From NCBI GenBank assembly GCA_964556755.1, contig CAZKXI010000005.1, positions 94,762 through 158,761 of the forward strand: 64,000 nt of DNA. Reading direction: 5' to 3'. This document shows, in pieces, positions 10,467 to 57,305 of the stretch. This DNA is from an uncultured Eubacteriales bacterium (lineage in GTDB: Bacteria > Acidobacteriota > Aminicenantia > Aminicenantales > UBA4085). The position numbers and the translations under genes are program-made. Numbering within the stretch: position 1 is the first letter of the stretch; the number at the start of each line of letters is the position of its first letter. Below the pieces are notes generated by a model that did not search any database, had not been told where the DNA came from, and saw only the letters and a list, made by a program, of their open reading frames with translations.

Positions 10467-10470
10467 CTTT

Positions 10471-10909
10471 TTCTCCCATCTCCGGGATCAAGGGCGGTTC
10501 GGGGTATCGGCCAACGGCGATATCGCCCTGGCGGGGACAGTTGCGGCAACGTCCCAACTAGGGCTGCGCAAGCTTCGCGAGGACGCAGCCTTTTTCCACG
10601 GCACTCTGAGGGCACCCAGCCCTGGCGGGGACTATCGCAGCGACGTCCCGGCTAGGGCTACGCAAGCTCCGCGGGCGCCGAGGGATGTTTGAGCACGCGA
10701 TAATCCTACGGTACCGTGATGGAGTGGGTGGTCATCATGCTCGGTAGATCTTGAATGCGGAGTTCCGCCCTTGCGGTGACGATCGAAGCGACGTCCCGAC
10801 GAGGACTGCGAAGCGCTTGCAGGCGCCGAAGGGAGCGGTGGGAAAAGGCGGGGTTGCGTCCGAAGCCGCCGGGACGATACCCTGAACCGACCTTCCGGAG
10901 AGGGGAGAA
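10471..10909. mobile_element. MITE-like repeat copy B (~439 bp) with ~32-bp terminal inverted repeats
   Basis: Left TIR TTCTCCCATCTCCGGGATCAAGGGCGGTTCGG; right TIR CCCTGAACCGACCTTCCGGAGAGGGGAGAA. The interior has three tandem ~55-bp hairpin sub-repeats (GGGAC-N10-GTCCC followed by GGCTGCGCAAGCTYCGC). No ORF. Confidence 0.7.
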
Positions 10910-10912
10910 GAC

Positions 10913-17819: not shown

Positions 17820-17823
17820 CCGG

Positions 17824-18026
17824 CTCTCTTTCCCCTCCCGGGAAGAGCGGTCCAGAGGGTCAGCCCGGCTGCTTGGTCGAGCCTTCACCCGTGTTCGACC
17901 CGCTCCCGCAGACCGCGGCGGTATGACGATAGCGGCTCGGGCCTCGTCGGTGGCTTCACGGGCTCGCCCTGCGCTTCTCCGCCGGGCTGGCCCTCCGAAC
18001 CGCTTCTCTTCCCGGTCGGAGAGCGG
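17824..18026. mobile_element. MITE-like repeat copy D (short variant, ~203 bp)
   Basis: Degenerate left end CTCTCTTTCCCCTCCCGGGAAGAGCGGTCC and right TIR CCGAACCGCTTCTCTTCCCGGTCGGAGAGCGG. Interior GGCTGCTTGGTCGAGCC is shared with copy E. Fills the gap between the NTP-transferase stop and the lpxB stop. Confidence 0.6.
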
Positions 18027-23593: not shown

Positions 23594-24883
23594 GTGGCCG
23601 TGTACGCCCTCTACTCGCTCCTCCTGCTGTTGGCCCTGGCCGTCATATTCCCCGCCTACGCCATCAAGCTCCGGCTGAAGCGGGGTGAGCCGCTCCGCTT
23701 CGCCGAAAGGCTTGGCCATCGGCTGCCCAAGCCCGAGCCGGGCCGGCCCTTCCTCTGGATCCATGCCGTCTCGGTCGGGGAAGTGCTCTCCCTGCAGGGG
23801 CTGACGGCGGCTATCAAAGCCCGCCATCCCGAATGGACCCTGGGCGTCTCCGTGCTGACCGAATCGGGCTATCGGATGGCTTTGGACAAGCTTGGAGCCG
23901 ACCAGGTCTTCTTCGTCCCCCTGGACTTCCGCTTCAGCCTCCGCCGGGTCCTCCGCCGCCTGGATCCATCCTGCCTGGTTCTGGCCGAGTCCGAGTTCTG
24001 GCCCCGCCTGCTGCGCGAGACGCGACGATGGGGCGTGCCCATCCTGCTCATCAACGGGCGCGTCTCGACCCGGACGGCGACCCGGATGAGGAAGATCCGC
24101 CCCCTGGTCCGCCGGGTCGTCGGGAACATCGGCCGCTTCCTCGTCCAAACCGAGAGAGACAAGGCCCGGCTGGTCGAGGCGGGTTTGGAGGCCGAGCGGA
24201 TCGAGGTGGCCGGGAACCTGAAGTGCGAGGTCCGGCTGCCGACAGTGACGGTGGAGCAAGCCGCGGCGGCCCGGGCCGAGCTCGGCGTCTCGGAGGAGGA
24301 ATCTGTCGTCGTGGCCGGATCGATCCATCCCGGAGAGGAGGGGGCGCTGCTCGATGCTCTTCTGGCGGCTCGCCGCGCGGGGCATCCCGCCCGCATGATC
24401 CTAGCCCCCCGCCATCCGGACAAGTTCGCGACTCTGGAGAAGGACCGGCCGGGGGACGGGCTCGTCTTTCAGCGGAAGTCCTCCTTCCGCCCCGGGGAGC
24501 CTTGGAACGTCCTCATCCTCGACACCATCGGCGAGCTGGCCCGCTCCTACGCCTTGGCCGACTCCGCGTTTATCGGCGGAAGCCTGATCCCTCGCGGGGG
24601 CCAGAACCTGCTCGAGCCGGCGTTCTATGGAAAGCCCGTCTTCTTCGGTCCCCACATGGACAATTTCGCCGCTCTGGCCGAGGCCTTTCTCCTTGATGGG
24701 GGAGCCCACACCGTGCGCACGGCGGAGGATCTGGAGGCGATGTTCGCCTCGGCCGGGTCCGCCTCGGGCCGGGAGGCCGGCCGCAAGGCCCGGGCCACGC
24801 TCGAATCGCTGTCGGGGGCGACGGAGCGGACGCTCTTCGCCATCGAAGAGGAGATGGCCCATGGGCGCGGCGCGGCCGCCTAG
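23594..24883 (+). CDS. waaA: 3-deoxy-D-manno-octulosonic acid (Kdo) transferase
   Basis: N-terminal signal-anchor, GT-B fold and WaaA/KdtA-family motifs (LILDTIGEL...FIGGSL). GTG start near 23594; the TTG at 23561 is also possible. Confidence 0.82.
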   Translation: MAVYALYSLLLLLALAVIFPAYAIKLRLKRGEPLRFAERLGHRLPKPEPGRPFLWIHAVSVGEVLSLQGLTAAIKARHPEWTLGVSVLTESGYRMALDKLGADQVFFVPLDFRFSLRRVLRRLDPSCLVLAESEFWPRLLRETRRWGVPILLINGRVSTRTATRMRKIRPLVRRVVGNIGRFLVQTERDKARLVEAGLEAERIEVAGNLKCEVRLPTVTVEQAAAARAELGVSEEESVVVAGSIHPGEEGALLDALLAARRAGHPARMILAPRHPDKFATLEKDRPGDGLVFQRKSSFRPGEPWNVLILDTIGELARSYALADSAFIGGSLIPRGGQNLLEPAFYGKPVFFGPHMDNFAALAEAFLLDGGAHTVRTAEDLEAMFASAGSASGREAGRKARATLESLSGATERTLFAIEEEMAHGRGAAA

Positions 24884-25724
24884 AAGATTTCCGCCCCTCC
24901 TGTCCCTCCTGCTCGTCTTAGCCGCGCTCGCGGGGCCTTTCGCTTCCCCCTTGGATGCCGGCCGGGCGGCGGCGTCCCTGAACCCTTCCTCCTATCGCCT
25001 TGATGAGGGACTTCTCCGGCGTTTCACCCTCGATGTCGGCGCCGTCATCAAGGCTCCGGCCGGCTGGAAGGGGAGCGACTGGGCCGGCTTCGGACTGGCT
25101 TCGGCCGCCTCGCTGGCCGTCCTGGTCTGGGACGACGGCCTCTACACCTTTGTCCAGGACCGCAAGACGCCTCTCTCCCGAGATGCCTTTCCCCTCATCA
25201 CCCGGGCCGGTGACGGCGGCTATGTGGCCGCCGCCCTCGGACTCTTGTATCTCGGCGGGGAAGCCTTCAACAGCGCTTCGCTGCGCCGAACCGCTTTCCT
25301 CAGCCTGGAAAGCTTCGCCGCCTCCGGCCTCATCGTCCTGGCCATCAAAACGGTGGTCGGGCGGGCTCGCCCGTACGCCGATGAGGGCCCCTCTTCCTTC
25401 CATCCTTTCAGCTTCACCGGCCGCAACGCCTCGTTCGTCTCGGGCCACTCCGCCTCCGCCTTCGCCGTCGCGGCAGTCATTGCGGAGACCTCGCGGAGCG
25501 TCCTGGTCGACGTCCTGTCCTACGGCTTGGCCGGATTGGTCGCCGTCTCGCGCGTCCACGAGAGCAAGCACTGGCCTTCCGACGTCGTGGCCGGCTCGCT
25601 GCTTGGGCTTTTTGTCGGCTGGAAGATCGCCGACCTGGACGAGAAGCGCGAGGGAGGGGGCGCCCGTTTGGCCTGGACGGCATCCGCCGGCCCCTCCGGC
25701 GTGGGGCTGAGCCTGCGATTCTGA
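24861..25724 (+). CDS. PAP2 family phosphatase (candidate lipid A/Kdo2-lipid A phosphatase, LpxE/LpxF-like)
   Basis: PAP2 motifs KxxxxxxRP (KTVVGRARP), PSGH-like (SFVSGHSAS) and SRxxxxxHxxxD (SRVHESKHWPSDV). ATG at 24861 overlaps the waaA 3' end by 23 nt. Confidence 0.8.
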   Translation: MGAARPPRRFPPLLSLLLVLAALAGPFASPLDAGRAAASLNPSSYRLDEGLLRRFTLDVGAVIKAPAGWKGSDWAGFGLASAASLAVLVWDDGLYTFVQDRKTPLSRDAFPLITRAGDGGYVAAALGLLYLGGEAFNSASLRRTAFLSLESFAASGLIVLAIKTVVGRARPYADEGPSSFHPFSFTGRNASFVSGHSASAFAVAAVIAETSRSVLVDVLSYGLAGLVAVSRVHESKHWPSDVVAGSLLGLFVGWKIADLDEKREGGGARLAWTASAGPSGVGLSLRF

Positions 25725-25752
25725 TTCCGGATTCCGGGCGACTTTTTACAGG

Positions 25753-26097
25753 GTTCTTCGCCAATTTCCGGGAAGTATAAGCGGTTCGGGGTACACCGTC
25801 GGGGGCGACGGAGCCATAGGCCGTGATCGGATCGTAATGGATCAACTGCCTCGGGGGGATAAAAACGGCCTATGGTCGGCCAACGGCGGAGAAGCGCCGG
25901 TTGAGCCCTGTCGGTTGCCCCTCGATGGAGAGCTCCTAACACGATCGAGCCGGGACTGAATGGCCCCATCTATACGCCGGCGAAGGCTCAACCAAGCCGT
26001 CCTCGCGGAGACAGATGAAGCATCCGTCTCGACGAGGGCTGCGCAAGCTCCGCCGGGCCGACACCCCGAACCGCTCTTCCCGGAATGGGGCGATGAG
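25753..26097. mobile_element. MITE-like repeat copy C (~345 bp)
   Basis: Left TIR GTTCTTCGCCAATTTCCGGGAAGTATAAGCGGTTCGGGG; right TIR CCCCGAACCGCTCTTCCCGGAATGGGGCGATGAG. Interior carries GAGAC-N-GTCTC and GGCTGCGCAAGCTCCGCC hairpin units and a TCGGCCAACGGCGGAGAAGCGCCGGTTGAGCCC block. Confidence 0.7.
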
Positions 26098-26166
26098 TCT
26101 TTTATTGAGGCCCCGCCTGGCCTCTGCTATCATGGCCGGGAAACCGGATTCGCCAAGGAGGCGCCC

Positions 26167-34348: not shown

Positions 34349-34493
34349 GATCCCTCCCATCGAAACCCTTCGGATGGGCCAAGCATAGAGGGATGTTCGG
34401 CGCCTTGTCAAGGCGGCGACCGGCGGCAACGGCTTGACAGGGTGGCCAAAAGAGTCTAACTTTTCCGCATCTTTTTTCGGTCCGGAGGGATTC

Positions 34494-37229
34494 ATGAGAA
34501 GAGTCGTTTGCGCCGCCGCTTTGATCCTCGCGCTGGCCGGGGGCATCCCCGCCCTGGCCCAAGTTCGGGGCGACGTCACCGGGGCCGTCAAGAACGAAGC
34601 CGGCGCTCCGCTTTCGGGCGTCGAGGTCAAGATCAGCGGAGAGTTCCTGCCCGGCGGGCGGACGTTCACCACGACCGCCGACGGGGCCTTCCGCTTCCTC
34701 AGCCTGATCCCGGGCCGCTACGTCATCGAGGCCACGGCCCCCGGCATGATCTCGCTGCAGGACAAGTACGAGTTCACCGTGGCCCTGGGCAAGGCCGTCC
34801 AGGTGCCGATCGTCCTGGTGGCGGTCGGCAAGGAGACCCGCGAGATTACCGTCCGGGCCCCTTCCCCCGAGATCGACTTGAAGTCCACCCAGGTCGCCTC
34901 CAACTGGGAGAAGGAGACCGTGGAGAAGCTGCCCCTGGGCCGATCCTACTCCTCGCTCTTCCAGCTGGCCCCCGGTGTCGCCGACAACCGCGACTTCGCT
35001 CCCAACGCCGGCGGCAACAAGCAGGACAACGTCTTCCTGTTCGACGGCTCGAACATCACCAATCCGTTCTTCGGCACCCTGGGCGCCAACTTCTCCGAGA
35101 TGGACATCGCCGAGTTCAGCATCACCCGGGGAGCCATCAGCGCCGAGTTCGGCCGGGCCGCCGGCATGGTCACCAACGCCATCACCAAGTCCGGCACCAA
35201 CACGTTCAGCGGCTCGCTCCGCTTCGTGGCCGAGCCGGCCTCCTTCACCGCGCCCAGCAATGATCCGACCCTGGTCACCAAGTACAACCGCTATAACCCG
35301 GCCGTGTCGCTGAGCGGGCCGATCATCAAGGACAAGCTGTGGTTCTACGTCTCGGCCAACCTGCCGCGCTCGACCACGACGGGACGCATCAACAACCTGG
35401 GCCCTGTGCCCGACGCCCAGTCCGTCAACAACGAGCTGTTCTTCAAGCTCAGCGCCAACCCCCATCCCAACCACTTGATCGTCGCCAGCATCCGCAACGA
35501 CGACTATAAGGACGAGAACGCCGGCGTCGGCGTCAACGACCATCCCAACGTCTCGACCACGGGCGAGGGCCTCAACCGCATCCTCTTCCTGAGCTGGTCC
35601 TGGACGATCTCGCGCAACACCTTCTTCGAGGCCAAGTACGACCACGTCATCAACGACTACTCCAGCGTGCCGAACATTGACCTGGGCTACCAGCCGACGT
35701 TCGACCCGAACAACCTGGATAGGATGGGCTACTTCCAGACGGGCGGCTCCTACATCCTGGGCGGCGCCACCACGACCGGCCAGTACGTCGGAGCGGCCTC
35801 CGAGTACAATACCCAGAACTTCTTCCGCGACGAGCTGAAGCTGGTCCTGACCCAGTACGCCAGCTTCCTCGGCACCCAGCACATGTTCAAGGCCGGCTTC
35901 GGCTTCGATGACGGCGGCGAGTACCTCGAGCGCAAGGCTAATGGCTGGGGCTCGATCATCTACTACTCGGCCCTGTCCTCTTCCGTCGATCCGCTCAAGC
36001 GGCCGGGCTTCCGGGCCCGATACTACCCCGAGCAGGCGCCCCAGGATTCGCGGGGCCGGACCTATTCGATCTTCGCCCAGGACCAGATCAGCGTCGGCGA
36101 CCGGCTGACCTTCACCCTGGGCGTGTTGGCCAACCGCGACGAGTTCAGCGTCCAGACGGCCGGCGAGAAGCTGACCTTCCTGAAGCTCGATTTCGACAAG
36201 GAGATCCAGCCGCGCCTGGGGGTGGTCTTCATCCCCAGCCTCAAGCTGGGCGACAAGATCTACGCCAACTACGGCCGCTACAACAACATGGACAACCGCA
36301 GCCTGGCCCGGGCGGCGGCGCCGCTGCGGGTCTACCGGTCGGACGCCTTCTTCCTGACCGACGGGACGCTGCTGTCCGACACGCCGCAGGCCTCGGAGAC
36401 GGGCAAGGTCATCCTGCCGGACCTCGATCCGACCTCGACCGACGAGTTCGTCCTGGGCTACAGCCGGCCGCTGTTCAAGCACTGGACGATGGAAGTCTGG
36501 GGCCAGTACCGCAACGTGTCGCACGTCATCGAGGACTACCCGACCACCAATGTCCTGACCTCGCCCGGCAAGTATGTCTACGGCAACCTGGACGGGGACC
36601 TCTATGACGTCGACGGCAACGTCGTCTTCGAGGGCGTGGTGGCCAAGCGCCAGTACACCGCCCTCAGCTTCGAGCTGAAGAAGGAGTGGTCCGACCGCTG
36701 GTCCCTGACCGCGATGTACACCTGGAGCAAGCTCTACGGCAACTGGGATCTGGACTACTCGTCCGGCGTGTCGCTGTTCTACGCCTCATCCTACATCCAG
36801 GACGCGCCCGGGCTCTATATCCAGGATCCCAACCGGACCGGCTACATGTCCGGCGACCGGACCCACGTCTTCAAGATGTTCGGGACCTGGGAGTTTCTGC
36901 CCCGGCTGACCGCGGGCGCCTACCTGCGGCTCCAGAGCGGCCGGCCTTGGGAGGCCCGGGGTCGCGACTACTACGGCAACTACTACATGTATCTCGAGCC
37001 CGCGGGCGCCAACCGGCTGAAGACGTGGACCAACCTCGACTTCCAGCTGACCTACACCATCCCGCTGGGCGGCCGGTTCCAGGGCATCCTGGAGGCCCGG
37101 GTCATGAACGTCTTCGACACCCAGACGGTCATGTCCATCGACGTGCGGCAGGACCAGCCGACCTTCATGGACGCCACGTCCTACGCCGCGCCCCGCAAGT
37201 TCGCCCTGACCTTCTACGTGAACTTCTAA
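34494..37229 (+). CDS. TonB-dependent receptor-like outer-membrane protein with N-terminal carboxypeptidase-regulatory-like domain
   Basis: Signal peptide, CarbopepD_reg-like N-terminal domain (GVEVKISGEF...TTADGAFRF), plug/barrel-type Gly-Tyr-Asn-rich sequence, and a C-terminal aromatic residue (...FYVNF). Confidence 0.78.
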   Translation: MRRVVCAAALILALAGGIPALAQVRGDVTGAVKNEAGAPLSGVEVKISGEFLPGGRTFTTTADGAFRFLSLIPGRYVIEATAPGMISLQDKYEFTVALGKAVQVPIVLVAVGKETREITVRAPSPEIDLKSTQVASNWEKETVEKLPLGRSYSSLFQLAPGVADNRDFAPNAGGNKQDNVFLFDGSNITNPFFGTLGANFSEMDIAEFSITRGAISAEFGRAAGMVTNAITKSGTNTFSGSLRFVAEPASFTAPSNDPTLVTKYNRYNPAVSLSGPIIKDKLWFYVSANLPRSTTTGRINNLGPVPDAQSVNNELFFKLSANPHPNHLIVASIRNDDYKDENAGVGVNDHPNVSTTGEGLNRILFLSWSWTISRNTFFEAKYDHVINDYSSVPNIDLGYQPTFDPNNLDRMGYFQTGGSYILGGATTTGQYVGAASEYNTQNFFRDELKLVLTQYASFLGTQHMFKAGFGFDDGGEYLERKANGWGSIIYYSALSSSVDPLKRPGFRARYYPEQAPQDSRGRTYSIFAQDQISVGDRLTFTLGVLANRDEFSVQTAGEKLTFLKLDFDKEIQPRLGVVFIPSLKLGDKIYANYGRYNNMDNRSLARAAAPLRVYRSDAFFLTDGTLLSDTPQASETGKVILPDLDPTSTDEFVLGYSRPLFKHWTMEVWGQYRNVSHVIEDYPTTNVLTSPGKYVYGNLDGDLYDVDGNVVFEGVVAKRQYTALSFELKKEWSDRWSLTAMYTWSKLYGNWDLDYSSGVSLFYASSYIQDAPGLYIQDPNRTGYMSGDRTHVFKMFGTWEFLPRLTAGAYLRLQSGRPWEARGRDYYGNYYMYLEPAGANRLKTWTNLDFQLTYTIPLGGRFQGILEARVMNVFDTQTVMSIDVRQDQPTFMDATSYAAPRKFALTFYVNF

Positions 37230-37295: not shown

Positions 37296-37431
37296 CGTTT
37301 CTGCGGCGATATCCGGGACGGACGGCTCGGGGGATGCTCTCGGGGCGAGGGCCCAGGGCCCGCGTTCAGTCCGTGGCAGCTGATTCCCAGGCTCGTCTAT
37401 CGGCGGGCTCGAGTCGCTCCCCCGGGGCCGG

Positions 37432-39468: not shown

Positions 39469-39658
39469 GGGGCTCCTCCGTGATGGGGCTGTCAGAGGCC
39501 CGATTATAGTCCAGACGGAAATAGGGGTACAGTATACGTAATTCCCGATTTCCTCTTCTGTGCCTTCGCGGCTCTTGACACGTCACGGCCCTAATTTTCT
39601 GTAGGGATTGGAAGCGTAAACAAAAAGTTCGGGAATTATGTATGGTGTCCCCCAATTA

Positions 39659-39688
39659 TTGAACTCTGGGGGCGGAAAATCGTAGATT
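39659..39688 (+). promoter_or_regulatory. Sigma-70-like promoter TTGAAC-18-TAGATT in an AT-rich divergent intergenic region
   Basis: The 246-bp region is ~45% GC. The hexamers lie 27 nt upstream of the ABC ATPase GTG, with a GAGGA RBS. Confidence 0.4.
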
Positions 39689-43224: not shown

Positions 43225-43301
43225 TTCCCGCCTTGACACTCCGAAGCCGGGAAGGCTACCATCCCGGCCGAGTCCACGAGCTCTTTCGAAGGGAGATCGC
43301 C

Positions 43302-44108
43302 ATGAATCTCGGCCGCAAGCTTCTGGTCGTCGCCTGTCTCCCGCTTTTGGCCGCTCCGGCTCCGGCCGCGTCCGGGGGCCAGTACACCAGCTCGCACGGC
43401 TATAGCTTCAATAATCCCGTCTCGGCCTTCTGCAACGACCTGACTTGGAACGCCATGAACGCGCGATTGGCCTATAAGGCCATGCTCAAGCGGAAGGGCT
43501 ACTCCGATTCCCAGATCGAGGCCATGTCGACGAAGCGGATGGTCGAGATTCTGGGCGCCGAGACCGAATCCGGCCCCGTCCCGTCGCCGGCCGTCGCGGC
43601 GGCCAGCCGATTCAAGCCGTCCGGGACGAGGCTGTATCTGCCGGACCTGGCTCGAAGCCTGGCCTCCGACGCCGAAGGCCGCCGGGCCCTGCTTCAGGTC
43701 TTCGAAGCCGGTCTGAAAGCCTACGAGGAGGGCGCGGCGGAAGCGGGCTTCGTCAATGACCTGGCCGGGGCCATGGCCTACTTCATCGGGGTCTCTTATT
43801 ATCTCATCCGGGGCGAAGAGCCGGACGAGAAGGGCTTGGACGAAGTCGGCCTGGCCCTGCGCCGGTCCATGGACACGCCGCGGGTGAAAGCCATCTCCGA
43901 CTCCGAGAAGCAGAGGTTCTACGAGCTGATGATAGGCTTGGGAACGTACTTGGCGGCCGTCTACGGCCAAGCGGCGCGGGACGGGGACGAGAAGGCGGCG
44001 GAGGCGGTCCGCAAGGCCGCGGGGGAGAGCTTGAAGGGATTCCTCGGTCTCGAGCCGGCTTCGATCCGGATCACCCGCGCCGGCCTGGAGATAGCCGGCG
44101 CTCGCTGA
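43302..44108 (+). CDS. Secreted hypothetical protein
   Basis: Signal peptide (MNLGRKLLVVACLPLLAAPAPAAS), 268 aa. Possible TTGACA-18-TACCAT promoter at 43233-43262. Confidence 0.55.
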   Translation: MNLGRKLLVVACLPLLAAPAPAASGGQYTSSHGYSFNNPVSAFCNDLTWNAMNARLAYKAMLKRKGYSDSQIEAMSTKRMVEILGAETESGPVPSPAVAAASRFKPSGTRLYLPDLARSLASDAEGRRALLQVFEAGLKAYEEGAAEAGFVNDLAGAMAYFIGVSYYLIRGEEPDEKGLDEVGLALRRSMDTPRVKAISDSEKQRFYELMIGLGTYLAAVYGQAARDGDEKAAEAVRKAAGESLKGFLGLEPASIRITRAGLEIAGAR

Positions 44109-44155
44109 CGGCCGGGCTCATCACGCCGCTAAGCGGGATGAGTAGGGGAAAAAAG

Positions 44156-44464
44156 GTTCTTCTCCCATCTGCGGGAGAGAAGACGGTTCGATGTGTCGGC
44201 CAACGGCGAAATCGCGAGGGCGCAGCCTTATTCCACAGATCTCTGAGGGCACCCAGCGGGCGCCGAGGGATGTTTGAGCACGCATTAGTCCCACGGTATC
44301 GCGATGGAGTGGGGGGTCTCGAAGGACCTGATCATCAGGCATGCGGAGTTCCGTCCTCGTGGTGACACGCGAAGTGCTGTCACCGCGAGGATGGAAAAGG
44401 GCGAGTTGCGCCCGAAGCCGCCGGGACGATGCATCGAACCGTCTCCCGCGAATGGGAGAAGAAC
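44156..44464. mobile_element. MITE-like repeat copy F (~309 bp) with near-perfect 33-bp TIRs
   Basis: Left GTTCTTCTCCCATCTGCGGGAGAGAAGACGGTTCGATG; right CATCGAACCGTCTCCCGCGAATGGGAGAAGAAC. The interior shares ~150 bp with copy B (GGGCGCCGAGGGATGTTTGAGCACGC...GATGGAGTGGG...GCGGAGTTCCG...AAGCCGCCGGGACGAT). Confidence 0.75.
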
Positions 44465-44520
44465 CCAAAAAAAAGCCCCGCCCCGGATCCGGGCGGCCGG
44501 ACGCGGGACGGGGCGGAGAG
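44465..44520 (-). terminator. Rho-independent terminator for the lipoprotein gene (GC stem + U8 on minus strand)
   Basis: Minus-strand CCGCCCCG...CGGGGCGG stem followed by TTTTTTTT, abutting the MITE. Confidence 0.55.
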
Positions 44521-46564: not shown

Positions 46565-46568
46565 AGCG

Positions 46569-46779
46569 GTTCTCCGCCCAATCCCGGGAAGGGCGTTTCA
46601 GGGCCCAGGCCACGGCTGCTTGGTTGAGCCTGCACCCCGGTTCGGGTCGGGCCGTGGAGTCCTGGCTCGATCATGCTCGCGGCTCTCCATCTCGCGGCGG
46701 CCGACACGGGCTCAACCGGCGCTTTTCCGCCGTTGGCCTGGACCCCGAACCGCTTGCCTTCCCGGAAATCAGGGAAGAA
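46569..46779. mobile_element. MITE-like repeat copy E (short variant, ~211 bp; partly inverted interior)
   Basis: Left TIR GTTCTCCGCCCAATCCCGGGAAGGGCG; right TIR CCCCGAACCGCTTGCCTTCCCGGAAATCAGGGAAGAA. The interior block GGGCTCAACCGGCGCTTTTCCGCCGTTGGCC is the reverse complement of the block in copy C. Confidence 0.65.
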
Positions 46780-46847
46780 AAAAGCCCCCACTTCCGGGCC
46801 GGAGGCGGCGCGGGAATGGGGGCTGAGGGGGCGGCGCCGAGGCGCCG

Positions 46848-51618: not shown

Positions 51619-52335
51619 ATGCTGGAAACCATTCATCTGACCAAGCGCTACGAGGACGGCTTCCTGGCCGTGGACGACCTGAGCCTGAAGGTCGAGCCGG
51701 GCGAGATCTTCTGCATGTTCGGGGCCAACGGGGCCGGCAAGACGACGACCATCAACATGCTTTTGGGCTTCCTAACCCCGAGCTCCGGGATGGCCCTGGT
51801 CGAGGGTCTCGACGTGGCCAAGGAGCCGCTCCGGTCCAAGGACCACCTGTCCTTCGTCTCCGAGAACGTCATGCTCTACGGCAGCTTCACCGCCTTCCAG
51901 AACCTGGACTACTTCTGCAAGCTGGCCGGCAAGCGGAGCCTGACTCGGGCCGACTACGCCCGGGCCCTGGAGAGCGTCGGCCTGCAGAAGGAGGCCTTCG
52001 CCCAGCGGAGCAAGAACTACTCCAAGGGCATGCGCCAGAAGCTGGGCCTGGCCATCGCCCTGCTCAAGGACGCCCCCAATATCCTCCTCGACGAGCCGAC
52101 CTCCGGCCTCGACCCCAAGTCGGGTCAGGAGTTCCTGGAGCTCCTCGTCCGGATGCGCGACCAGGGCAAGTCGATCTTCATGTCCACCCACGACATCTTC
52201 CGGGCCAAGCTGATCGCGGACCGGGTCGGCTTCATGAAGAGAGGCCGGCTGGTCATGCTGAAGACCCGCCGCGAGCTTGAGGGCGAGGATCTGACGGAGC
52301 TCTACATCCAGTACATGGACGAGCGGGAATCCTGA
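51619..52335 (+). CDS. ABC transporter ATP-binding protein
   Basis: Walker A (GANGAGKTTT), signature (YSKGMRQK) and Walker B (ILLDEPTSGLD) motifs. Confidence 0.85.
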   Translation: MLETIHLTKRYEDGFLAVDDLSLKVEPGEIFCMFGANGAGKTTTINMLLGFLTPSSGMALVEGLDVAKEPLRSKDHLSFVSENVMLYGSFTAFQNLDYFCKLAGKRSLTRADYARALESVGLQKEAFAQRSKNYSKGMRQKLGLAIALLKDAPNILLDEPTSGLDPKSGQEFLELLVRMRDQGKSIFMSTHDIFRAKLIADRVGFMKRGRLVMLKTRRELEGEDLTELYIQYMDERES

Positions 52336-55050: not shown

Positions 55051-55791
55051 TCAGGCCGGCAGGGGCTCGGACTTCATGTAGTCGATATAGATCTTGACCA
55101 GATCTTCGACCTGGAGCTCCTCGCGGGTCCGCTCCATGACCAGCCGGCCCTCCTTCATGATCCCGACCCGGTCGCCGATCTCCTTGGCCCGGAAGATGTC
55201 GTGGGTCGACATGAGGATGGCCTTGCCCTCGGCCTTGAGCTCGCGGAGGATGTCCTGGAACTCCTCGGCCGCCTTGGGATCGAGGCCGGAGGTCGGCTCG
55301 TCGAGCAGGATCGCCGCGGCATCCTTGATGATGGCGATGGCGATGCCCAGCTTCTGGCGCATGCCCTTGGAGAAGGTCTTGACCCGCTGCTCGAAGGCCT
55401 TCTCCTGCAGCGACACCCGGCGCATGACCTGGTAGTACTGCTCCCGGGCCAGGTGGGGCTTGCCGCCCAGCTTGGCGAAGAAGTCCAGGTTCTGGCGGGC
55501 CGTGAAGTTGCCGTAGAGCATGACGTTCTCGGAGACGAAGGCGACGTGCCTCTTGGCCTCCAGCGGGTCGCGGGCCACATCGATGCCGTTGATGAGGCAG
55601 CGTCCGGTCGTCGGCGGGATGAAGCCCAGGAAGAGGTTGATGGTCGTCGTCTTGCCGGCCCCGTTGGCGCCCAGCAGACAATAGACCTCGCCCGCCCGGA
55701 CGGTCAGGTGGAGATGGTCCAGGGCCAGGACGCCGTCCTCGTAGCGCATGGACAGGTCGTCGGCCTTGAGAATGACGGATCGTTCGGTCAT
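55051..55791 (-). CDS. ABC transporter ATP-binding protein (paralog of 51619..52335)
   Basis: ATG at 55791 (MTERSVILKADDLSMRYEDG). Walker A (GANGAGKTTT), signature (FSKGMRQK) and Walker B motifs. The upstream track extension is spurious. Confidence 0.85.
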   Translation of the reverse strand: MTERSVILKADDLSMRYEDGVLALDHLHLTVRAGEVYCLLGANGAGKTTTINLFLGFIPPTTGRCLINGIDVARDPLEAKRHVAFVSENVMLYGNFTARQNLDFFAKLGGKPHLAREQYYQVMRRVSLQEKAFEQRVKTFSKGMRQKLGIAIAIIKDAAAILLDEPTSGLDPKAAEEFQDILRELKAEGKAILMSTHDIFRAKEIGDRVGIMKEGRLVMERTREELQVEDLVKIYIDYMKSEPLPA

Positions 55792-55823
55792 GGGATGCTC
55801 CTCAGGGCGCGCGCCGGGCGGCC

Positions 55824-57305
55824 TCAGCGGCGGGTCAGCTTGATGCCGAAGACCACGACCCCGACCAGGAGGCCGACCAGGAGCAGGGCCAGCAGGACGA
55901 CGCCCAGGACGTTGGTCTTGGAGGCCACGTGGACCCGCACGATCTTGTCCTCGGACTCGACCTTGCGGTTGTCGGCGCTGCATTCGGTCTTGATCTTGGG
56001 CTCGTAGTCGCCCACGGCCACGTCGGCCGGGGGCAGGAACTGGATGCGGACGACCTCCTCCTTGCCCTGCTCCAGCGCGGCGATCAGGTCGGGGGAGATC
56101 TCGGATCGCCAGTTGAGCGGCAGGTCGGCGGCGATGTGAATGTTGTTCAGCGGCCGGGTGCCGGCGTTCTTGACCCTGACCTCCATGTCGACGCTCTGGC
56201 CGACCCGGATCTCGTGATAGAGATTGACCGCCTGGACCTCGATCTTGCCCACGCCGCGGGGGATGAGCTCCAGCTTGACGTGGCCCGCCTTGAGGGCGGC
56301 GATGTCGGCCGGCTTGACCTCGCCGCGCTCCCGGACGGCCTGCAGGCCCGCGGCTTGCTCGTTGTCCAGGGCCAGGGCGTAGAAGGCCAGGGGCTTGTCG
56401 ATGACCACTTGGGCGTCGGCGTTCTTGGGCAGATAGAGCTTCAGCTGCAGCTTCATCGAGGTGACGCCCTCGGTGAACTTGATCTGGGACAGGCGGGCCT
56501 GGGTGGTCGGGTCGGAGAACTCGTAGTTGACCGGCCGGGGCAGGTTGGCCAGCTCCAGTTTGAAGACGTTGGCCTCGCCGGAGAACTTCTCCAGCGACAG
56601 GTCGTAGGTAGCGGTGCTCTCCAGGTCGGCCTCCTGCGAGAACTGGGCCGAGTTGACGGTCACGATGTTGGCGCTGACTCCCTTCTGCAGGTAGACCGAG
56701 GTCGTCTCGGACTTGCCGGAGTAGAAGACGCTGACGTCCAGGTTCTCGACGTCCTTGAGCAGCTGGAAGGTCACGTCCCGCTCCGTCTCGAGCGGCATGG
56801 AGGAGATCGTCTTCTCGTAGGGATCAGAGATGATCTTGGCCTCCGACTTGAGCGAGACCGAGACGTCCTTGATCTCCTTCATGAAGTCGACCGGGAAGAG
56901 GTCCTCGGCCTTGATGGCCAGGTTGTCCAGCTGCTTGAGCTCCTTGGAGGAGTAGCGCAGGGTGACCCGGACGAACTTCTTGCCGCCGGCGTCCTGGAAC
57001 TTGACGGCGCTGGCCACGTTGATGCGGGCCTCGCTGCCCATGAAGGCGATCAGGGCCTGCTGGAAGTCGACCTGGGCCTGCAGGTAGGCCGTCTGGACCA
57101 GGGCGAACTCCTGCTCGGAGGTCAGGCCCTGCTCCTTGAGCTTCAGGGAGCGGTCGAAGTCGCCCTTGGTCTTCTCCTTCTGGAGCTGGGCCTTCTTCAG
57201 GGTCAGGAGCTTCATCGTCTGCGACGGCGCTTCCTGGGCGGGCAGGGCGGCGGCCGCCCCGAACAAGAGGAATCCGGCCATGATGGCCGCGGCGAGCTTT
57301 CTCAT
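55824..57305 (-). CDS. Membrane-fusion-protein-like periplasmic adaptor with inverted topology (signal peptide, HlyD-like coiled coil, beta domains, C-terminal TM anchor)
   Basis: N-terminal signal peptide, a coiled-coil heptad region (QLQKEKTKGDFDRSLKLKEQGLTSEQEFALVQTAYLQAQVDFQQA), ~350 aa of beta-rich sequence, and a C-terminal hydrophobic helix VLGVVLLALLLVGLLVGVVVFGIKLTRR. Start overlaps the TolC-like stop. Confidence 0.6.
   Translation of the reverse strand: MRKLAAAIMAGFLLFGAAAALPAQEAPSQTMKLLTLKKAQLQKEKTKGDFDRSLKLKEQGLTSEQEFALVQTAYLQAQVDFQQALIAFMGSEARINVASAVKFQDAGGKKFVRVTLRYSSKELKQLDNLAIKAEDLFPVDFMKEIKDVSVSLKSEAKIISDPYEKTISSMPLETERDVTFQLLKDVENLDVSVFYSGKSETTSVYLQKGVSANIVTVNSAQFSQEADLESTATYDLSLEKFSGEANVFKLELANLPRPVNYEFSDPTTQARLSQIKFTEGVTSMKLQLKLYLPKNADAQVVIDKPLAFYALALDNEQAAGLQAVRERGEVKPADIAALKAGHVKLELIPRGVGKIEVQAVNLYHEIRVGQSVDMEVRVKNAGTRPLNNIHIAADLPLNWRSEISPDLIAALEQGKEEVVRIQFLPPADVAVGDYEPKIKTECSADNRKVESEDKIVRVHVASKTNVLGVVLLALLLVGLLVGVVVFGIKLTRR

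Follow-up and report, generated by a model that had tools for sequence, protein, structure and literature searches.

The 64-kb stretch of DNA analysed here (hereafter, the window) carries five full copies (B–F) and one solo end (A) of an unnamed family of short inverted-repeat elements. We regard these as probably non-autonomous, non-coding, MITE-like elements, of which at least the copy at the B site has apparently been exapted. The family is lineage-restricted and still differs between strains; so far, it has been seen in two sister species of uncultivated Aminicenantes only. The window is chromosomal DNA of 68% G+C that is rich in housekeeping genes. Its genes include pnp, rpsO, lpxB, proS, coaE, prfB, lnt, and those for ABC transporters and TonB-dependent receptors; no tRNA genes were found in it, and the public proteins closest to those of the window are labelled Candidatus Aminicenantes or Acidobacteriota. 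Elements of this kind are well known in themselves, while small mobile repeats are hardly described in Aminicenantes or Acidobacteriota, and a full-text literature search found no paper linking ‘Aminicenantes’ with ‘inverted repeat’. The family marks strain-level variation and also breaks short-read assemblies of this lineage, with many public contigs ending inside a copy. The B copy, which is more conserved between the two species than synonymous sites and whose arms have stayed complementary, is a candidate for a mobile element that has turned into a 3′-end structure between convergent genes.

Blastn of each copy against the 64-kb window recovered the family. All six copies proposed in the initial annotation proved to be real, and their coordinates were correct within 3 nt. 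The refined copies and one further candidate are located as follows:

503–550, no strand assigned: copy A, a solo right-type arm (HMM E = 3e-10)
10469–10911, + strand: copy B, type I, 443 nt (arms 10469–10519 and 10866–10911)
17822–18026, + strand: copy C, type II, 205 nt (arms 17823–17870 and 17979–18019)
25752–26098, + strand: copy D, recombinant, 347 nt (left arm, interior, module, and right arm)
37298–37337, + strand: possible degenerate solo arm, a weak HMM match that is not secure (E = 0.13)
44155–44465, + strand: copy E, type I, 311 nt (arms 44155–44208 and 44418–44465)
46568–46781, + strand: copy F, type II, 214 nt (arms 46568–46617 and 46727–46779)

The terminal arms were aligned, and a profile HMM was built from the alignment of 15 arms. 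The resulting consensus is approximately 50 nt long, GGTTCTTCTCCCATCTCCGGGAAG(..)GGCGGTTCGGGGTGTCGGCC(AA)CGGCG, compared with the ~35 nt given previously, and the literal end consensus proposed at that time had no matches in the window at 3 mismatches because the arms differ by small indels (1–6 nt). A gapped core end motif, CCGGGAAG-N1-5-GCGGTTCGG, occurred five times in the window versus none in 100 shuffles. The profile HMM detected exactly 11 arms in the 64-kb window, corresponding to five pairs and the solo end (E = 2e-12 to 3e-5), and eight arms in three loci of the species UBA4085 (L054, L064, and L139). Seventeen of these 19 arms were detected at E ≤ 3e-8, and the weakest two at 3e-5 and 7e-5. 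The outermost 25 nt of each arm form a small hairpin by themselves, and left arms are closer to the left arms of other copies than to the right arms of their own copy. Across the window and UBA4085, the copies are 205–450 nt long, which is below the MITE limit of ~500 bp.

Two types of interior are carried on these common ends: type I in copies B and E, and type II in copies C and F. Blastn showed that B and E have nearly their whole length in common (77–89%) and that C and F have 188 nt in common (72%). The type I interior contains a core block and, in B, three hairpin modules of 52 nt:

10524–10575, + strand: 52-nt hairpin module 1 in B (direct-repeat family D5)
10619–10670, + strand: 52-nt hairpin module 2 in B (direct-repeat analysis and six-copy alignment)
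10676–10698, + strand: type I core block CGCCGAGGGATGTTTGAGCACGC, also found in E at 44261–44283
10769–10820, + strand: 52-nt hairpin module 3 in B (direct-repeat analysis and six-copy alignment)

The 23-nt core block is invariant in six of six type I copies; we did not take this as special constraint on the core, the length of the invariant run being just marginally unusual (about 0.06). In module 1, a 14-bp stem, GCCCTGGCGGGGAC-N11-GTCCC..CTAGGGC, precedes a TGCGCAAGCT-like tail. Each module has G[C/T/G]AG in front of it on the reverse strand, in the variants GCAG, GTAG, and GGAG. Copy E retains one partial module (44355–44391), and a blastn search of the window found the modules nowhere outside the larger elements.

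Copy D is a recombinant of the other interiors. Its left arm (HMM arm 25753–25802) is split by an 82-nt nested insertion at 25793–25874, which is followed by an F-type interior in inverted orientation (25878–25997; 121 nt, 79%), one B-type module at 26001–26054, and the right arm at 26050–26097. The copy is degenerate, its two arms being 61% alike. The view that the interiors are mosaic stands, while the pairings obtained by blastn differ from those first proposed: B and F, which had been said to share ~150 bp, gave arm-level matches only. The 82-nt insertion in D is bounded by 10-bp inverted repeats of its own (CCATAGGCCG / CGGCCTATGG) and occurs nowhere else in the window.

An alignment of the six type I copies contains no conserved reading frame, and the type II interiors are shorter than 120 nt, in agreement with the initial view that the elements are non-coding. 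A small peptide in the type I core (MFEHA..R.R.GVGG) was considered and set aside, since its frames end differently in each copy. The whole window contained 0 Rfam matches at the gathering score, and relaxing the threshold to E ≤ 10 or E ≤ 1 around B, D, E, and F gave chance-level matches only. No transposase domain and no Y1 (RAYT) gene were found among the window proteins scanned, and known IS ends had no match in PLSDB plasmids. A cognate IS or transposase with matching ends, which the idea of mobilisation in trans calls for, was likewise absent from the window proteins scanned, PLSDB plasmids, and viral contigs. With no plasmid, Rfam, or literature match, the family cannot be assigned to a named one, as had been stated at the outset. 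Searching 241 million metagenome records for a 19-mer of the type I core returned one match (L112). This locus was set aside as possibly a chance match because only a 20-mer is common to both, and one to a few chance matches are roughly expected for a collection of this size. Positions 283–412 of L112 (JGI contig Ga0163163_10208933) contain a 120-nt palindrome with a fold z-score of −5.7; the genes on its two sides are convergent, and the organism has a low G+C content.

The copies had been described as lying directly after stop codons, and measurement bears this out: each starts 1–46 nt past a stop. Five copies lie between convergent genes, and D lies between co-directional genes. Copy A sits in a 64-nt gap between the stop of an AI-2E transporter gene (491) and that of the RNase III gene (556). 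Copy B occupies the entire gap from the stop of a 316-aa gene (10466) to the coaE stop (10913), and C fills the whole gap between the stops of an NTP-transferase gene (17819) and lpxB (18030). Copy F begins 3 nt past the nitroreductase stop and extends up to the terminator U-tract of the downstream gene, which is on the minus strand. Copy E is flanked by A-runs at 44149–44154 and 44467–44474, the right-hand one being the U-tract in the terminator of the downstream gene, also on the minus strand. The weak relic at 37298–37337 adjoins the terminator T-run of a TonB-dependent receptor gene. The further suggestion that the copies supply terminator-like hairpins held for E, D, and the L064 copy in a simple terminator scan and failed for B and the L054 copy; the general statement that each element supplies terminators was therefore rejected, the scan being inconsistent across copies.

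Copy D begins 28 nt past the PAP2 stop, and its other end adjoins the −35-like box of the gene that follows. No promoter-like sites were found in or beside the copies, except that of the downstream gene at D. This promoter-like site of the amidohydrolase gene (26105–26133; TTGAGG, a 17-nt spacer, and TATCAT, with TG) begins in the right flank of D, which overlaps the −35-like TTGAGG, so the putative duplicated target would include the −35 box.

Related DNA was obtained by scanning a genome collection with a 19-base core end motif and by gene-anchored look-ups, which gave syntenic DNA. The comparison covered near-identical strains (L120–L137; 99.3–99.9%), a 97% sister strain (L113 and L114), the species UBA4085 (L138–L141; 86–87% identical over 20 kb, with 77.2% at four-fold sites), and outgroups at ~70–81% (L115–L119 and L142). 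Among the more than 108 matches listed in the genome-collection scan, two were real type I copies (L054 and L064), both from Candidatus Aminicenantes UBA4085, and almost all of the others were chance matches in G+C-rich genomes. Beyond the element itself, neither the L054 nor the L064 locus matches the window at the nucleotide level. UBA4085 also has orthologous copies at the B and C sites, so the family extends beyond the window, as a mobile repeat family had been expected to do, at both orthologous and non-orthologous sites. Overall, the 85 kb of ingroup DNA contained eight copies, and no arm was detectable in the ~66 kb of DNA from outgroups (P = 0.002, Poisson).

Sites lacking the element, which had likewise been anticipated, were found in a strain or an outgroup for B, C, D, E, and F. 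The B site is empty in L142, where the flanking genes overlap by 20 nt. The C site is empty in L117, where 3 nt separate the two stops (TGAgccTCA), and in L142, which has a 4-nt gene overlap there. The F site is empty in L116, where the stops lie 50 nt apart, and F is present at 99% identity in L113. As the B and C sites are filled in both species, these insertions predate the species split. The family probably entered the ancestor shared by the window species and UBA4085 (~86% DNA identity), or expanded there, and the convergent genes would have abutted or overlapped before the insertion that now places a hairpin between them.

Copy E is absent from the 97% strain L113, where homology breaks at window position 44469, within ~4 nt of the right end of E, and where the empty allele keeps the terminator and a single A-run. 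In L113 (3902–4742 versus window 43226–44468), an ankyrin-repeat gene replaces the DUF6683 gene together with E; one breakpoint is where the ABC-2 permease gene ends, and the other coincides exactly with the end of E. Because of this DUF6683-to-ankyrin swap on its other side, the locus is not a simple empty site.

Copy D is cleanly absent from strain L120 (99.3–99.7% identical). The window has 442 nt between the PAP2 and amidohydrolase genes, and L120 has 84 nt. The sequence is CCGC-TTTCTTGAGG-CCCC at the empty site and CGAC-TTTTTACAG[D]TTTTATTGAGG-CCCC in the filled allele, and both flanks resemble the single T-rich empty site:

25742–25751, + strand: left flank of D, CTTTTTACAG, with a 7/10 match to the empty site CTTTCTTGAG; putative half of a target-site duplication
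26099–26108, + strand: right flank of D, TTTTATTGAG, which differs from the empty site by one mismatch and a 1-nt gap

The indel corresponds to the element plus about 8–11 nt. Copy D is carried by other samples, whose contigs end inside it, and contigs from other samples also break inside B, E, and F. Of the 28 differences between the window and L120, six lie within ~25 nt of the D site (25726–25741 and 26104–26118), versus ~1 per 300 nt elsewhere, which suggests either recombinational import of an old empty allele or repair after excision. For a copy that is degenerate yet polymorphic among near-identical strains, such an import is at least as good an explanation as recent transposition or excision. 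As a separate observation on this region, the outgroup L117 lacks the PAP2 gene (window 24627–25724) and has the amidohydrolase gene immediately after kdtA (L117 7905–7941). Further differences in gene content between the window and L117 include the TonB-dependent receptor gene at 34434–37229.

Direct repeats flanking the copies had been named as a mark of insertion. AT-rich repeats (6–7/8) are present at D, E, and L064 (flanks ATAAAAAG / ATAAAAAA), though imperfectly, and none were found at B, C, F, and L054. As target-site duplications, they are imperfect and of low complexity.

The orthologous sites in UBA4085 further revealed how the copies change after insertion. The C-site copy in UBA4085 is 450 nt long, of type I, and carries all three modules, versus 205 nt and type II in the window. 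Both have in common a derived GCGGTCC arm beside the NTP-transferase gene, and the interior has thus been replaced at an orthologous C insertion. Compared with window B, the modules of this UBA4085 C-site copy are 88% identical and lie at the same three positions, while the backbone is only 78% identical. Conversely, the UBA4085 ortholog of B has no modules and a backbone that is 92% identical to that of window B. Orthologous B copies therefore differ by exactly three modules, all of which are present in a non-orthologous copy of the other species, indicating that modules move or are removed as precise 52-nt units. Together with copy D, these comparisons show that copies diversify by exchanging interiors, by taking up nested insertions, and by acquiring or losing 52-nt modules at three fixed positions.

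Every copy folds as a long hairpin on either strand, with z-scores of −4 to −11. In the six type I copies, 93.8% of alignment cells pair, and 14 of 101 pairs have changes on both sides versus 5.7 ± 1.7 after shuffling (0/500), with slid controls giving 1–6. The orthologous B copies of the window and UBA4085 differ at 23 of 286 backbone positions, i.e., they are 92% identical with the modules excluded. In the same comparison, identity is 77.2% at four-fold sites, 83–86% in the genes flanking B, and 82% in other intergenic spacers, so that the conservation of the B copy is significant against both four-fold sites (P = 3e-11) and other spacers (P = 1e-4). At least this one copy thus looks kept, apparently under purifying selection that preserves the hairpin. 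The most likely reason for such selection would be that the B copy now acts as a transcribed 3′-end structure, be it a terminator, an insulator, or an RNA-stability element. The covariation between the arms could also reflect descent from masters with co-evolved ends.

Conservation and covariation could also mean that the copies spread and persist as selected hairpins, not as transposons. They would then be REP/BIME- or ERIC-like extragenic hairpins that are selected at mRNA 3′ ends and spread by recombination, gene conversion, or a RAYT-type single-strand transposase instead of a DDE enzyme, a scenario that we consider rather unlikely. The mosaic modular architecture, with interiors swapped between copies, would be natural under it, as would the purifying selection on the orthologous copy, the compensatory changes that preserve arm pairing, and the lack of clean target duplications at most copies. 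The 52-nt modules are small imperfect palindromes, and their reverse-strand G[C/T/G]AG recalls the REP motif GT(A/G)G, which we treat as a lead only. However, these modules are confined to the interior of larger elements that have true 50-nt inverted-repeat ends and a defined outer boundary (the break at E lies within ~4 nt), the indel at D amounts to the element plus about 8–11 nt, left arms resemble left arms as expected of an asymmetric master, and the window proteins scanned include no Y1 (RAYT) gene. A direct assignment to REP, REPIN, or BIME sequences was rejected since the whole element is a 205–450-nt palindrome of which only the modules are small, and since the tetranucleotide varies, versus GT(A/G)G. 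IS200/IS605-derived palindrome elements lack terminal inverted repeats and target duplications and have equally oriented subterminal hairpins at their two ends; an element of this kind was rejected on the grounds of the true ~50-nt inverted-repeat ends and of the D indel, which exceeds the element by about 8–11 nt. A combined scenario, in which a MITE domesticated as a convergent-gene hairpin has itself been colonised by a REP-like 52-nt module that inserts or excises precisely at three GCGGGCGCCGAGGG-like sites, would make this a two-tier system; we mention it as an improbable elaboration, prompted by the orthologous B copies described above.

Another alternative, to which we attach very little probability, holds that the copies are genes for structured non-coding RNAs, with a functional type I core and ‘inverted repeats’ that are simply its closing helix. 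The invariant 23-nt core and other conserved blocks, the 87–100% pairing of the core helices 7–10, and the conservation of the B copy are all compatible with it, but the invariant run is of marginal length (0.06), type II copies have the same ends and not the core, and even close strains differ by the gain and loss of copies. Transitions that keep G-U pairing favour the + strand at ~2:1 in all pairwise comparisons and at 10:4 in the ortholog pair, an asymmetry that is weak (P = 0.09 for the ortholog pair; 27:19 in the strand-neutral arm alignment). Strand-specific RNA was also not accepted on the basis of folding energy: the + strand is better by 13–29 kcal/mol in type I copies, yet shuffled sequences reproduce most of this gap, which is thus mostly compositional. 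The lack of promoter-like sites in or beside copies, bar that of the downstream gene at D, and the near absence of the core 19-mer from the 241 million metagenome records also speak against RNA genes.

For the MITE-like reading that we prefer, a DDE-type transposase encoded elsewhere would bind both ends and mobilise the elements in trans, and insertion at short AT-rich sequences would duplicate ~8 bp of the target. In a genome of 68% G+C, AT-rich sites are mostly terminator U-tracts and gene-end spaces, which would explain why the copies lie after stops and against terminators. A possible parent would be the ISL3 family, whose ends begin with GGYTCTTC (GGTTCTTC here; GGCTCTGC and GGCTCTC in some copies) and which has an ~8-bp AT-rich flank repeat. 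Nevertheless, no ISL3 transposase was found, PLSDB plasmids gave no IS-end match, and the resemblance covers only ~8 nt.

Compared with known systems, the family resembles MITEs in being shorter than 500 bp, bounded by terminal inverted repeats, non-coding, and multicopy, some copies varying in size and others being truncated or reduced to a solo end. Further common points are the intergenic sites 3′ of ORFs, predicted stable stem-loop transcripts, and, putatively, direct repeats that decay with age. Prokaryotic MITEs, such as Chunjie of Geobacter uraniireducens and QMITE1/2 of Coxiella burnetii, typically have ends of 4–30 bp and are AT-rich (PMC10969869). In contrast, the arms here are ~50 nt and the elements G+C-rich, the host is an uncultivated Aminicenantes, and the parent IS was not found; apart from its long arms and high G+C, the family fits the structural definition of MITEs (PMC10969869). 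Like the Correia elements of Neisseria and the ERIC/IRU elements of Enterobacteriaceae, the copies are long imperfect palindromes by gene ends that vary between strains and fall into indel size classes. Correia and ERIC/IRU elements are co-transcribed with neighbouring genes. Correia and ERIC elements are 100–200 nt long with short ends and a TA-type target, whereas the present elements are 205–450 nt, have a putative ~8-bp AT-rich duplication, and carry two unrelated interiors on the same ends. With BIMEs (REP clusters) and the pneumococcal BOX, RUP, and SPRITE repeats, the family has in common the mosaic of small palindromes, nested insertions, convergent-gene sites, and terminator-like hairpins. 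REP units are 20–40 nt long and spread singly or as REPIN pairs with a RAYT gene, whereas the 52-nt palindromes occur here only inside a larger inverted-repeat-bounded element, and no RAYT was seen in the window proteins scanned.

Two other inverted repeats were observed. A second, unrelated element of ~230 bp with perfect ~34-bp ends (AATAGGGGTACAGTATACGTAATTCCCTATTTC) is present in the 97% sister strain (L113 8383–8612 and L114 7379–7608), where it occupies the promoter region of two divergent genes, for an S9 peptidase and an ABC transporter. In the window, it is represented by a solo end at 39524–39546 and a degenerate copy at about 39640–39662, with just one end kept, and it had no matches in viral contigs. 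The window also contains a 681-nt inverted repeat (51637–52317 and 55075–55755; 76% complementary), which overlaps ABC ATPase ORFs at 51619–52335 and 55051–55983 and is probably a pair of oppositely oriented paralogs that have diverged, as opposed to a mobile element.
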